From the NCBI GenBank assembly GCA_963713925.1, contig OY970212.1:1-64000 (forward strand): 64,000 nucleotides of DNA. Reading direction: 5' to 3'. This stretch comes from an uncultured bacterium. Lineage in GTDB: Bacteria > Babelota > Babeliae > Babelales > Vermiphilaceae. Position numbers and translations under genes: made by a program. Shown in pieces: positions 4,526 through 9,242 of the stretch; the first letter of the stretch is position 1, and each line of letters opens with the position of its first letter. Under the pieces are notes generated by a model. That model was not told where the DNA came from. It searched no databases and saw nothing but the letters and a program-made list of their open reading frames with translations.

Positions 4526-4554
4526 TTCACATTCATGCAAAAGCATGGTAGAGT
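4526..4554 (+). promoter_or_regulatory. putative sigma70 promoter of the toxin operon
   Basis: TTCACA-17 nt-TAGAGT with extended TG; spacer holds palindrome CATGC-AAAA-GCATG; conserved in the second copy at 10304-10332. Confidence 0.5.
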
Positions 4555-4591
4555 CTGCCGAAAATGAACACCACACAAAGAGAGTGCGCAC

Positions 4592-6172
4592 ATGAACAAA
4601 ATATTCAGTCAAAATATCTTCTTTTTCATCTTACTTTCTCTGTATTCGTATAATATATTCGCTGGATTTCCCGCAGGAACACCGGTTAAAACAACAAGTG
4701 GATATCAGCCAATTGAAACAATCAAATCAGGCCACCATCTTACCTCGTATGATCTAAATGCGGGCTTTATTGAAAATCGAGTAAATTTTTCTTGGGCACA
4801 AGCTACCGACATATGCATTGTTATCCATTATCTTGAAACCGAACTGATTTCAAACGCAAAACAACAGTTTTATCTTCCTGAATCGGCTTCATGGGTTGCG
4901 GCACGTGAGTTAAAGCCAGGCGACAAATTGCTTTCGGCAAAACATGGACATATCGTCATTGATGCAGTTGAACAACTTCCTTTTGCAGGGTTTACTCATT
5001 GTGTACGCTTTGATAATATTCACAATTTTTGTGTATCGCACGATGACATCGTCACGCATAATAGCGCCGGCCTTACATGGAAAATGAGACTCTGGCCCCC
5101 TCCAACTCCTCTTGAAATCGGGCTAGGAGTTCTTTTTACTGTTGGTGCATTTGTTGTGAGAAAAATCATGACCAATTTTGGGGCTCACGAAGATTTACAT
5201 GGACACGATGGTGTTTATCGCGGCAATCAACTTCGTCCAAATAATCCGCCATATCAATACAATCCCCAGACTGATTTTGATAATCCATATGCATATTATC
5301 GCCACAAGCAAGAGACTGAAGGCTATTATAATCCAAATTACGAACATTCTTCATCTTTCCTCAACAACGATGATATTTCTGCTCATAATGAAACGTACAC
5401 AGGGCATCTTCATAATGAAGCTATCGCTCAAAACATGTATCATCAAAATGTGTCTTCAACCCAAAATCTTCCACCCGCGATTAGCATAGAGCCTTCAGTC
5501 AACAACAATGCGTTACAATCGGCTCAAGCTCCCACCCAAACTTCGATTACCACAATATCAGGTCTTAATACTGAAACTACATACTGTCCGACAACAACTC
5601 CTGATCCGGAGATTCGAAAACAGCCACATGGCTGCCCGACCCCGCTTCAATTTGAGCCAATATCGCACACCGGCGGCGATCAATTACCAAAGAAGGATCC
5701 TATCGTTGCCCTTCCAACACCAATTCCTGAAATTGAGAAGACACCTCAAGATTGCTTCCCTCCGATAGTCCAAGACATATCAGATATCGTTATGACAAAA
5801 GACCGGTCCGGCAAAAAGCCGAAAAAACCTAGGATCGAAGACAGCGGCAAAAAACCGTCAGACCCTGATATTTTTAATCCGGAAGATCATCCACATGGTC
5901 AATATATTCCATCGCCGAAACATCATAAACACAGCAAAGGTAATATAAGCAAAGCTCCAAAAGATGGTCAAAAGGCGTTGGATAATTCGATTGAAGTAGA
6001 AGAAGGCTCAACTGAAAGAATAGCTGTAGTCGATGGTGAATTTGTTGTGTTAAAGGAGACGCTAGCAGGGATATACCATGGCTATGCCGTAGATAAGCCA
6101 ACTGAGGAGCAAAAAACTGCTCTGCAAAAAGCGGGGAAACTCACACCTACAGGAAAAATTCCAAAACAATGA
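4592..6172 (+). CDS. secreted polymorphic toxin with N-terminal Hint domain and C-terminal putative nuclease tip
   Basis: signal peptide; Hint GFPAGTPV...VTHN (aa 25-157, nt 4664-5062); hydrophobic segment; Pro/Cys-rich linker; tip with PKH, ALDNS and YHGY motifs; ATGA overlap with next gene. Confidence 0.8.
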   Translation: MNKIFSQNIFFFILLSLYSYNIFAGFPAGTPVKTTSGYQPIETIKSGHHLTSYDLNAGFIENRVNFSWAQATDICIVIHYLETELISNAKQQFYLPESASWVAARELKPGDKLLSAKHGHIVIDAVEQLPFAGFTHCVRFDNIHNFCVSHDDIVTHNSAGLTWKMRLWPPPTPLEIGLGVLFTVGAFVVRKIMTNFGAHEDLHGHDGVYRGNQLRPNNPPYQYNPQTDFDNPYAYYRHKQETEGYYNPNYEHSSSFLNNDDISAHNETYTGHLHNEAIAQNMYHQNVSSTQNLPPAISIEPSVNNNALQSAQAPTQTSITTISGLNTETTYCPTTTPDPEIRKQPHGCPTPLQFEPISHTGGDQLPKKDPIVALPTPIPEIEKTPQDCFPPIVQDISDIVMTKDRSGKKPKKPRIEDSGKKPSDPDIFNPEDHPHGQYIPSPKHHKHSKGNISKAPKDGQKALDNSIEVEEGSTERIAVVDGEFVVLKETLAGIYHGYAVDKPTEEQKTALQKAGKLTPTGKIPKQ

Positions 6173-6810
6173 TTAATTTAAAACGAACCCTTAATTTTCT
6201 TATTAATAAAAAAAATACATTTAAAATTCGTTTATTTGGCGTAAGCGTTGGAAATGTCTGTCCTTTTGATGATGGCATTGCATTTATAGTTTATAACAAA
6301 GTATCTATGCAATTAACGACTTGCCATATATATGGGACTATGCGAACGTTGCACTATAGGCTCGATAAAATTTTGAATCAAAATTTCAAATTACACCCTT
6401 CTATTAACAAAGATATCGGTTTATTGTGGAGCGATGAATTATTGGATAAGCCAGGGCTTGAATACAATATGATTGAAGGAAGACCATACTGGGTAGGACT
6501 TAGTCATTCCCTTCTTTCATCCAGTGAAAACGACCCTCAGTTGACCCATACCTGGCTCTATTTAGACTGGAACGACAATATCATTTTCGAAGTTACTCCC
6601 TCATATCCTTGGACTTTCGGAAGAAAACCAAAAACAAAAAAAGAAAAAGCTGAATATATTACTTATGAAGAATTTGTGAAATCATATAAGCCATTGGTAA
6701 AAATTGAGCTATCCAAAGAAATAGCTCAACAATGGTTGAAGCAGGCTAATGAGATGATCACTATCATTGAAACAAACTATCAAAAAATGAAAGATCGCGG
6801 GGAAGTATAA
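6169..6810 (+). CDS. putative immunity protein
   Basis: coupled to the toxin stop (ATGA); a paralog at 10839 follows the second toxin-tip copy. Confidence 0.65.
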   Translation: MINLKRTLNFLINKKNTFKIRLFGVSVGNVCPFDDGIAFIVYNKVSMQLTTCHIYGTMRTLHYRLDKILNQNFKLHPSINKDIGLLWSDELLDKPGLEYNMIEGRPYWVGLSHSLLSSSENDPQLTHTWLYLDWNDNIIFEVTPSYPWTFGRKPKTKKEKAEYITYEEFVKSYKPLVKIELSKEIAQQWLKQANEMITIIETNYQKMKDRGEV

Positions 6811-6819
6811 AAGGACATT

Positions 6820-8286: not shown

Positions 8287-8348
8287 TATGCGCGTGAGAG
8301 TAGAGTTACTTCTTTGATGAAAATACACTCTGTTCACTTTTCCGCATA
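8287..8348 (+). ncRNA. candidate Y RNA 1 (short form)
   Basis: TATGCG/CGCATA terminal helix, GTGAG/TTCAC and TAGAGT/ACTCTG inner helices, shared AGAGTTACTTC motif; begins 4 nt after the Ro60 stop. Confidence 0.6.
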
Positions 8349-8350
8349 TA

Positions 8351-8438
8351 TTAAGGACCGTCAAATAAGAGTTACTTCGGTTGATGCTATATGCATAGGG
8401 TTCAAGTCCCTTACGCTCTTGTTAATTTTCGTCCTTAA
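8351..8438 (+). ncRNA. candidate tRNA-like Y RNA 2 (YrlA-like)
   Basis: TTAAGGAC/GTCCTTAA terminal helix, AATAAGAGT/GCTCTTGTT inner helix, AGAGTTACTTC motif, ATGC-TATAT-GCAT hairpin, T-arm AGGG-TTCAAGT-CCCT at 8397-8411. Confidence 0.7.
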
Positions 8439-8459
8439 GCTTTTTAATGGAGGTTTCGC

Positions 8460-9242
8460 TTGAGAAGGACAAAACTCAAAAGATATATTCCCTTCGGAAA
8501 TGACCCATTGCTTTGTTCAATTGACATAGCACTCGATGACCGAGTAAACAAGGCCCAATATCCTTTTTCACTGCCGATTATTCAAAACACCAAGAATATT
8601 TCTTTTACTAAACCGGTTACATTCTTTGTAGGTGAAAATGGTGCTGGTAAATCTACTATTCTTGAAGCCATTGCTCAGAATATTGGGTTTGGCTCCGAGG
8701 GGGGAAGCAAGAATATCAATTTCCAAACTTCTAGCGCGGAACATTATACTCCCGCTATGAAATTAGCCGAATGCATGAAACTTTCATGGGGCTATAAGCC
8801 CCATGACGGTTATTTTTTCAGAGCCGAAAGTTTTTATAACGTTGCCAACTATCTTGATTCAATTCCGGATGGTAGCAAATCCTATGGCAACAATTCTCTG
8901 CACAATCAATCTCATGGCGAAAGCTTTTTCTCATTTTTCAGTAACCGCTTAGGCGACAGCGGTATTTACATTCTTGATGAACCGGAAGCAGCGCTCTCAC
9001 CCCAACGTCAAATTGCTTTGTTGAGAATAATCTATGATTTAACTAGGCAAAATACGGCTCAATTTATTATAGCTACCCATTCCCCAATCTTGCTTGCCTA
9101 TCCAAATGCTACCATTTATTCATGTGTGAGCGACCGGTTGCAGGAAATTACCTACACTCAAACGGAGCATTATCAAATAACAAAAAGGTTTCTCGACAAT
9201 CATGATCTGTACTTGAAAAATTTATTTTCTGATGAGCTCTAA
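8460..9242 (+). CDS. stand-alone ABC/AAA-type ATPase (COG3910-like)
   Basis: GENGAGKST, FFRAESF, SHGESF, ILDEPEAALSP, IATHSP motifs; GGAGG RBS. Confidence 0.9.
   Translation: MRRTKLKRYIPFGNDPLLCSIDIALDDRVNKAQYPFSLPIIQNTKNISFTKPVTFFVGENGAGKSTILEAIAQNIGFGSEGGSKNINFQTSSAEHYTPAMKLAECMKLSWGYKPHDGYFFRAESFYNVANYLDSIPDGSKSYGNNSLHNQSHGESFFSFFSNRLGDSGIYILDEPEAALSPQRQIALLRIIYDLTRQNTAQFIIATHSPILLAYPNATIYSCVSDRLQEITYTQTEHYQITKRFLDNHDLYLKNLFSDEL

Follow-up and report, generated by a model that had tools for sequence, protein, structure and literature searches.

A Ro60–Y RNA module behind a polymorphic toxin–immunity cassette in a Babeliales genome: most likely a one-off juxtaposition

Why should a gene for a Ro60 protein and two Y-type RNAs lie directly behind the immunity gene of a polymorphic toxin? 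This arrangement is found near the start of contig OY970212.1 (GCA_963713925.1), in a window that comprises the first 64 kb of the single-contig 1.32 Mb genome of an uncultured member of the order Babeliales (label G000). A preliminary description of the locus had read it as a single operon and suggested that the Ro60–Y RNA module might protect the cell from the co-expressed, putatively ribonucleolytic toxin. The explanation we favour, to which we assign a probability of about 0.7, is that a Ro60–Y module without a promoter of its own was captured once behind the cassette, is probably co-transcribed with it and serves ordinary RNA surveillance. The pairing of immunity gene and Ro60 gene is most likely a one-off juxtaposition and not a toxin-protection system.

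The locus consists of the following parts.

4526..4554, + strand: promoter-like element of the toxin cassette, TTCACA-17-TG.TAGAGT (9/12 in a sigma-70 scan, extended TG; putatively active)
4592–6172, + strand: toxin gene, open reading frame (ORF) of 526 aa
6169–6810, + strand: predicted immunity (partner) gene, ORF of 213 aa, in ATGA overlap with the toxin gene
6820–8283, + strand: TROVE (Ro60) gene, ORF of 487 aa, 9 nt past the immunity gene
8287–8350, + strand: Y-type RNA 1, its stem beginning 3 nt after the TROVE stop codon
8351–8438, + strand: Y-type RNA 2, ending 21 nt before the ATPase gene
8460 (TTG)–9242, + strand: ATPase gene, 260 aa, with GGAGG at 8449–8453

The ORF list bears out the common strand, and the overlap and the spacings of 9 and 3 nt agree with the preliminary description, as does the last gap, given there as about 20 nt. 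Its identification of polymorphic toxin, immunity protein, Ro60, Y-type RNAs and ATPase is likewise upheld by the analyses below, and every part of the locus belongs to a known kind.

Linkage of toxin and Ro60 across genomes

A survey of TROVE gene neighbourhoods had been proposed to look for recurring toxin linkage, and none was observed in either direction. Ro60 loci were collected from genomes, metagenomes and viruses, 200 for tblastn and 202 (2.08 Mb) for profile searches; 146 of the 200 had at least 2.3 kb of upstream sequence and 54 had less. By tblastn the 200 loci gave no match to toxin, tip or immunity protein and a single distant ATPase (28%, locus L191), and profiles of tip and immunity protein matched 0 of the 202. 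Eight HINT matches were obtained among the 202. The six that were read belong to inteins of housekeeping or phage proteins, and the other two share coordinates with one of these. Pfam searches at E<=1e-8 on 219 of 270 representative nearest neighbours of 120 non-viral loci (the 51 omitted being mostly short ORFs) detected no PT-HINT, RHS, Ntox or Imm family; the families found there include RtcB, RNA ligases, RlaP, Band 7 and WYL. An early scan of genome contigs with a single Ro60 query and a viral scan with P0002 gave no matches. Seen from the toxin side, Ro60 occurs within ~1.5 kb in 0 of 29 other tip loci. The gene following the immunity gene is miscellaneous in 27 other loci, the 17 scanned being another HINT toxin, CdiI_N, a thioredoxin, a phosphoglucomutase-like protein, an AAA protein, a hydrolase, two kinases and nine without a family. 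No literature linking Ro60 to a polymorphic toxin was found in a search that left preprint supplements outside, and the available text of PMC3482391 makes no mention of TROVE.

The genomic distribution points the same way, as the three parts vary independently of one another: of 251 phylum genomes, 43 have the tip, 53 the ATPase and 7 Ro60. Ro60 is present in 3 of 80 family genomes and in 1 of 41 relatives, namely the genome studied here; the Ro60 of locus L077 belongs to a genome of the same order. Besides G000, two genomes possess both Ro60 and tip, on different contigs, while 40 of the 42 other tip-bearing genomes are without a Ro60 match. The ATPase is absent from all six other Ro60 genomes. 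In two of these, G078 and G206, a chromosomal Ro60 gene is followed by Y elements and preceded by a divergent gene, with no toxin or ATPase nearby; the remaining four matches lie on short contigs or on phage-like-looking ones.

Transcription and components of the locus

The cassette promoter motif stands upstream of four toxin copies (4526, 10304, 74388 and 1205949), which account for four of its six genome matches at <=3 mismatches, and it was not found in front of Ro60. AAGGA and then the Ro60 start follow the immunity stop codon, so that the Ro60 ribosome-binding site abuts that codon, and similarity to a second, downstream copy of the cassette ends ~3 codons before it. Ro60 would thus have arrived with little more than a ribosome-binding site and would depend on read-through. 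In two scans no terminator-like site was detected between 5150 and 8770. The earlier claim that no terminator separates toxin and TROVE therefore stands for this range, whereas two weak hairpin/U sites are present in the 5' half of the toxin gene (4744–4764, 5104–5131). Toxin, immunity protein, Ro60 and both RNAs probably share one transcript. The single operon of the preliminary description is less secure for the ATPase, since GCTTTTT comes after the closing stem of RNA 2 and the ATPase coding sequence contains a strong hairpin with a U tail at 8779–8811 (-20 kcal/mol). Over the first 400 kb of the genome a crude ORF caller gives 388 pairs of neighbouring ORFs, 243 of them co-oriented, with a gap of <=10 nt in 34% of the co-oriented pairs, which makes the tight spacing of the locus by itself ordinary. 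Sequencing run X1 contains short pieces, 13 of 14 at >=99% and possibly from the same strain; none of them spans the immunity–Ro60 junction.

The toxin is divided into these segments, all on the + strand.

Residues 1–24: signal-peptide-like hydrophobic N-terminus (hydropathy)
Residues 25–157: PT-HINT domain ending His-Asn (Pfam PF07591, E 4.3e-7)
Residues 171–194: hydrophobic segment (hydropathy)
Between the 171–194 segment and the C-terminal tip: Pro/Thr-rich linker
Residues ~433–526 (5888..6172): toxin tip of the 5T87 CdiA-CT family (sequence and fold homology)

A paralog at 74454 in the same genome has toxin residues 1–390 in common (85%) and carries another tip and other downstream genes, and the identical tip family sits on proteins of varied lengths and N-termini. 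Judged by sequence, the toxin thus combines the conserved N-terminal delivery and processing part with the interchangeable tips that define polymorphic toxins. The swapped tips on a shared N-terminus and the overlapping immunity gene resemble the HINT-processed, Sec-exported toxins described in the available text of PMC3482391. Unlike the systems described there, the toxin has no RHS or haemagglutinin repeats, its HINT domain begins with Gly-Phe instead of Cys, and the cassette is followed by a ribonucleoprotein (RNP) module.

The tip matches the CdiA-CT of Cupriavidus taiwanensis (PDB 5T87), whose family is CDD cd20695 as named in the accessible part of PMC9111745, in both sequence and fold (36–39% identity, root-mean-square deviation (rmsd) 1.3–1.4). 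The sequence matches 5t87_E by phmmer (E 3.3e-8), a profile search gives E 8.4e-20 and Foldseek E 1.7e-5, and the tip model superimposes on 5T87 with Z 9.4 and rmsd 1.3 over 65 residues. Whereas 5T87 comes from a large CdiA, the tip studied here is borne by a short signal-peptide and HINT protein, as is often the case in the phylum genomes, which hold up to 7 tip matches each. The tip comprises a helix (38–43) and three strands in a helix and beta-meander arrangement, and among 31 aligned rows His444 and His496 are invariant and Arg476 near-invariant. Similarity to BECR/RelE structures is weak (Z 2.0–3.8; YxiD, RelE and BrnT at Z<=3.8), so that ribonuclease (RNase) activity is inferred from the small helix-meander fold and the invariant His444 and His496. 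The main text of the searched literature on BECR and contact-dependent inhibition leaves 5T87 unmentioned, and an activity of the tip family was not found there. No tip match was obtained in the phage collection. The ESM Atlas yielded unnamed clusters and, with Ntox50, one weak lead (0.83).

The immunity protein belongs to no Pfam, PHROG or PADLOC family, and a separate homolog search returned one protein outside this genome. A homolog stands directly downstream of the tip in 29 of the 29 other tip loci fetched, which by position marks the gene as the predicted cognate immunity gene. A complex of tip and immunity protein was predicted with a score of 0.92 against 0.08 for the best control, with His496 in the interface; the mark applied to this score is reached by 116 of 157 solved pairs and 2 of 215 mismatched pairs. 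The runs, based on our own alignments, agree in at least 94% of contacts, with a predicted local distance difference test score (pLDDT) of at least 91 for the partner. The immunity model itself (pLDDT 93.7) shows a two-sheet fold without a clear match: Whirly/MRP proteins reach Z 6.9–7.2 at rmsd 3.8–4.6, and CdiI 5FFP shows a middling likeness (Z 6.0, rmsd 4.4, 146 aligned residues). In contrast to the 5T87 system, no match to its CdiI was found by sequence or fold search, which makes recall of the 5T87 complex an unlikely cause of the predicted binding. The partner is likely a dedicated cognate immunity protein that is predicted to neutralise the tip. Independently of Ro60, the locus thereby introduces a 5T87-family toxin common in the order together with an unannotated, confidently modelled immunity family.

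The product of 6820–8283 is, by its sequence, an intact Ro60/Rsr-type protein of TROVE and vWA domains. TROVE is recognised as PF05731 (E 2.9e-21, 76.6 bits, cut-off 23) and as phrog_850 (E 1.2e-39). The vWA domain PF25045 scores 21.9 bits, under its cut-off of 27.7, in the expected place after TROVE, and the score against the Rsr equivalog NF041674 is far below the cut-off (51 of 900). The metal ion-dependent adhesion site (MIDAS) of vWA domains reads DxSxS..T..D. Its residues are intact (DKSGS at 319, GGTD at 381, SDMQ at 403), D319, S321, S323, T383 and D404 being invariant in 33 aligned rows. Bacterial Ro60 (Rsr)–Y RNA systems are described in the available text of PMC4201824 and PMC7790460 for Salmonella (rsr-yrlBA-rtcBA) and Deinococcus (Rsr-Yrn1-PNPase). 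Like these and phage Rsr, the present locus combines the TROVE and vWA protein with adjoining Y-type RNAs on the same strand, in a genome that also encodes PNPase and RtcB; unlike them, it has no linked rtcB or rtcA, no space for a promoter of its own and a toxin–immunity pair upstream. The absence of rtcB, rtcA and rtcR from the window had been noted before. We can add that rtcB is encoded outside it at 973989, unlinked to Ro60, and that rtcA was not found in the genome, which is 95.75% complete; rtcR was not searched for. The linkage of the rsr-yrl-rtcBA RNA repair operon is thus missing from the sequence of this locus.

In the metagenome loci L171, L167 and L191, Ro60 matches cover 1.65–2.1 kb where 1.4 kb would be usual, which hints at introns, inteins or insertions of another kind within the genes. 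At L191 (2348–5210) the Ro60 gene is interrupted by an inserted ORF, and an AAA_21-type ATPase, 28% identical to that of the window, lies 45 nt downstream.

Both RNAs were examined with a covariance model (R1) trained on 38 elements of other Ro60 loci, none from this genome. The elements had been chosen by their GTTACTTC motif, so that this part is built into the model, and the training set shows compensatory change at 11 of 14 pairs. RNA 1 scores 44.4 bits (E 1.8e-8) and RNA 2 33.3 bits (E 9.7e-6), far above the next-best match in the window at 12.7 bits, which marks them as more than chance; they are also the sole R1 matches in the whole genome. RNA 1 is short and folds into a closing stem with the GAGTTACTTC motif and neither T- nor D-arm. 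RNA 2 (fold z -2.69) has a closing stem, the GAGTTACTTC motif and a T-loop hairpin, GGGTTCAAGTCCC, without a D-arm. The model also recognises elements of like kind downstream of Ro60 in G078 and G206. A GTTACTTC element occurs within 1.2 kb of Ro60 in 139 of 200 related loci, upstream of the gene in 137 of the 139 and downstream in the window. No Rfam family was detected at the RNAs, either at gathering cut-offs over the whole window or at E<=10 on 8100–8650, nor with RF02553 genome-wide; YrlA (RF02553) gave no match at the locus at E<=10, and ARAGORN reported nothing at the two RNAs. According to the available text of PMC4201824, YrlA carries the motif GNCGAAN0-1G near its 5' end. The corresponding stretch reads GTCAAAT in RNA 2 (one mismatch) and GCGTGAGAG in RNA 1, and the elements of the window's Ro60 clade read G-N-A-G-Y-G-A. 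The tRNA-like domain of T-arm, acceptor-like stem and D-arm is incomplete in both, RNA 2 having the T-loop hairpin only. The broader features of bacterial Y RNAs are all present, namely the same strand, a position within 4 kb of Ro60, a long terminal stem and a conserved 5' strand. By sequence and predicted fold RNA 1 and RNA 2 are hence Y-type RNAs, and not YrlA as that source defines it, and they add to the group minimal Y RNAs in which the tRNA-like domain is incomplete.

The last gene encodes a stand-alone ABC-type ATPase (Pfam AAA_15/AAA_21), mostly ~60% identical among the genomes that carry it. Across 29 of its loci no neighbour recurs in more than three. A link between ATPase and toxin was considered and set aside: the two lie 1–6 kb apart in two genomes (divergent in G120, five genes apart in G128) and a HINT match was obtained in 1 of the 29 ATPase loci, which we took to reflect shared variable regions.

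Origin of the Ro60 module and rival explanations

Sequence comparison suggests that the Ro60–Y module is probably phage-derived. The closest Ro60 proteins are 60–70% identical, three of them on contigs of 39.0–40.5 kb, and both relatives with visible context adjoin genes for phage heads: at L158 these are portal phrog_156 and major head phrog_1357, and L170 is recognised by shared ORFs. A quick unrooted tree, in which one row (L095) in a wrong frame was ignored, places the window's Ro60 in a 12-row clade with L158 and L170 (Shimodaira–Hasegawa-like approximate likelihood ratio test 98), and G078 and G206 outside it. Within the phages Ro60 appears to be a mobile accessory gene too, as it was found in 0 of 82 portal loci of that family, including three relatives with 92–94% identical portals that cease matching L158 ~30–40 bp before its Ro60. 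The resemblance to phage ROT/TROVE proteins (PHROG 850), as far as these are described in the available text of PMC7824862, thus lies in relatives that adjoin portal and head genes; unlike these, the window's Ro60 is chromosomal and the genome has no portal gene. Three of the 251 genome bins of the phylum contain the portal, a weak link to the host. A prophage remnant in G000 was considered and rejected, the matches to phage ORFs being generic (repeat protein, GroES-like, HNH, HTH). L158, L170, L279–L281 and L358–L359 represent a phage family of ~39–40 kb with portal phrog_156 and a variable pre-portal stretch that sometimes contains Ro60.

The preliminary description had named chance insertion of the toxin cassette upstream of Ro60 as its alternative. 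Chance juxtaposition indeed fits best, with the difference that distribution and tree point to Ro60, and not only the toxin, as the incomer. In the sequence of events that we propose, the toxin would be exported by its signal peptide, and its C-terminal part would be released by HINT cleavage at His-Asn157 and neutralised by the downstream immunity protein covering His496. The Ro60–Y module would have been captured once behind the immunity gene, probably from a phage, and would be transcribed from the toxin promoter while serving no toxin-specific purpose. Both RNAs would be cut from the same transcript and bound by Ro60 through their terminal stems, and the resulting particle may, as is known of Ro60–Y particles, handle damaged or structured RNA with PNPase, in a cell that also encodes the unlinked RtcB. 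The ATPase would be a singleton with a mobility of its own and likely came in by a separate event.

That the Ro60–Y module guards against the toxin of its own cassette, as a tRNA-mimic decoy or by clearing cleaved RNA, was the inference first drawn from the direct adjacency of cassette and Ro60. It can draw on the T-loop of RNA 2, on the invariant histidines in the helix and beta-meander of the tip with its weak YxiD, RelE and BrnT matches, and on the decoy idea raised for YrlA in the available text of PMC7790460. We consider it very unlikely, as the linkage was seen at none of the other loci examined, an outcome that the preliminary description had itself listed among those that would speak against it, and nearly all other tip-bearing genomes are without a Ro60 match. 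The constant immunity gene and the predicted binding over an invariant histidine make it likely that dedicated immunity already exists. The decoy idea is weakened by the missing D-arm and acceptor-like stem in both RNAs, compared with an element of T- and D-arm in 57 of the 139 motif-bearing loci (by our own patterns), and the RNase activity on which it builds is itself putative. A wider role is somewhat easier to imagine and still unlikely: the module, captured by chance, could have been kept as a broad back-up against foreign RNase toxins in a post-immunity slot where orphan immunity genes collect. Some relatives do carry extra immunity genes in this slot, the order is rich in RNase-like tips, the 9 nt leave no room for a separate promoter while the cassette promoter is conserved, and the module is intact. 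In the available text, PMC3482391 describes immunity arrays as a reserve against non-kin toxins, and PMC7790460 reports that tRNA-cleaving toxins induce RNA-repair operons and that a YafQ cassette lies downstream of Salmonella rsr. Against this role stand the lack of recurrence in Ro60 and tip loci, the equal frequency of housekeeping genes in the slot and the unlinked rtcB. In its boldest form, a phage-derived Ro60–Y module domesticated in the immunity slot would add to the immunity against own or foreign RNase toxins a second layer that is RNA-based and independent of sequence. We hold this for a long shot; it would be a first instance of Ro60 tied into warfare between bacteria, and protection of this kind would directly test the published hypothesis that Y RNPs counter anticodon nucleases.

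The locus might also not form one operon, if Ro60 had its transcription start within the immunity gene and the ATPase were a unit by itself. A promoter-like site of 9/12 at 6541–6568, missing in the second immunity copy, the weak hairpin/U sites within the toxin gene as well as the U run that follows RNA 2 fit such an arrangement; promoter-like sites, however, occur at chance level (50 found, 46.5 expected) and the Ro60 ribosome-binding site abuts the immunity stop codon, so we regard it as improbable. Several points weigh against the one-off capture that we prefer. Co-transcription is read from the sequence, and Ro60 and both RNAs are intact although the nearest protein relative is only 70% identical, which implies that something keeps them. 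The sample holds no second genome of the genus, so that a young but selected linkage would go unseen. Kin and duplicates make up many of the 200 loci, and toxin families outside current collections would escape the scans. Among the Ro60 neighbours there are one Fic, one ART-PolyVal and one MPTase-PolyVal protein, and L191 has its distant ATPase close behind Ro60. As to the phage origin, the quick tree is unrooted and includes no one-clade test, context is known, and then in part, for 2 of the 11 other members of the clade, and the tie of the phage family to the order depends on the three bins with a portal, the contig in G055 standing alone at 39 kb. If capture is correct, the locus offers a snapshot of a Ro60–Y module moving, likely from a phage, into a small bacterial genome and apparently borrowing its neighbour's promoter.

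Other cassettes and surrounding genes

A further feature lies 4.65 kb downstream of the first cassette.

10298..11468, + strand: second, internally deleted copy of the cassette (repeats D1, D2, D4 and D18; tblastn and reading frames)

It retains the promoter motif, the first ~37 codons, an out-of-frame tip and an intact immunity paralog (209 aa, 63%), and looks like an orphan-immunity cassette. A degenerate cassette with intact immunity is a likeness to the systems with orphan cassettes in the available text of PMC3482391. No Ro60 lies behind this copy, and the genome's four HINT-toxin or linker-sharing cassettes other than the first all lack one.

The - strand at 36884–39168 encodes a further PT-HINT protein, 600 aa long, whose C-terminal tip differs (toxin cassette 37366–39168); it is followed by an overlapping acidic gene of 161 aa and adjoined by a tRNA-Arg. 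Two further cassettes, at L001 (4455–6849) and L002 (G000 1206015–1207995), have yet another tip type in common, with two small genes behind each; the copy at 1206015 is split over two frames. The second cassette is flanked by three genes for hydrophobic membrane proteins without a Pfam family (9311–10225, 11502–12278 and 12525–13307), two of which have a similar start and lie on opposite strands. An inverted repeat with perfect arms of 27 bp around a loop of 9 nt is located at 44095–44157 of the window.

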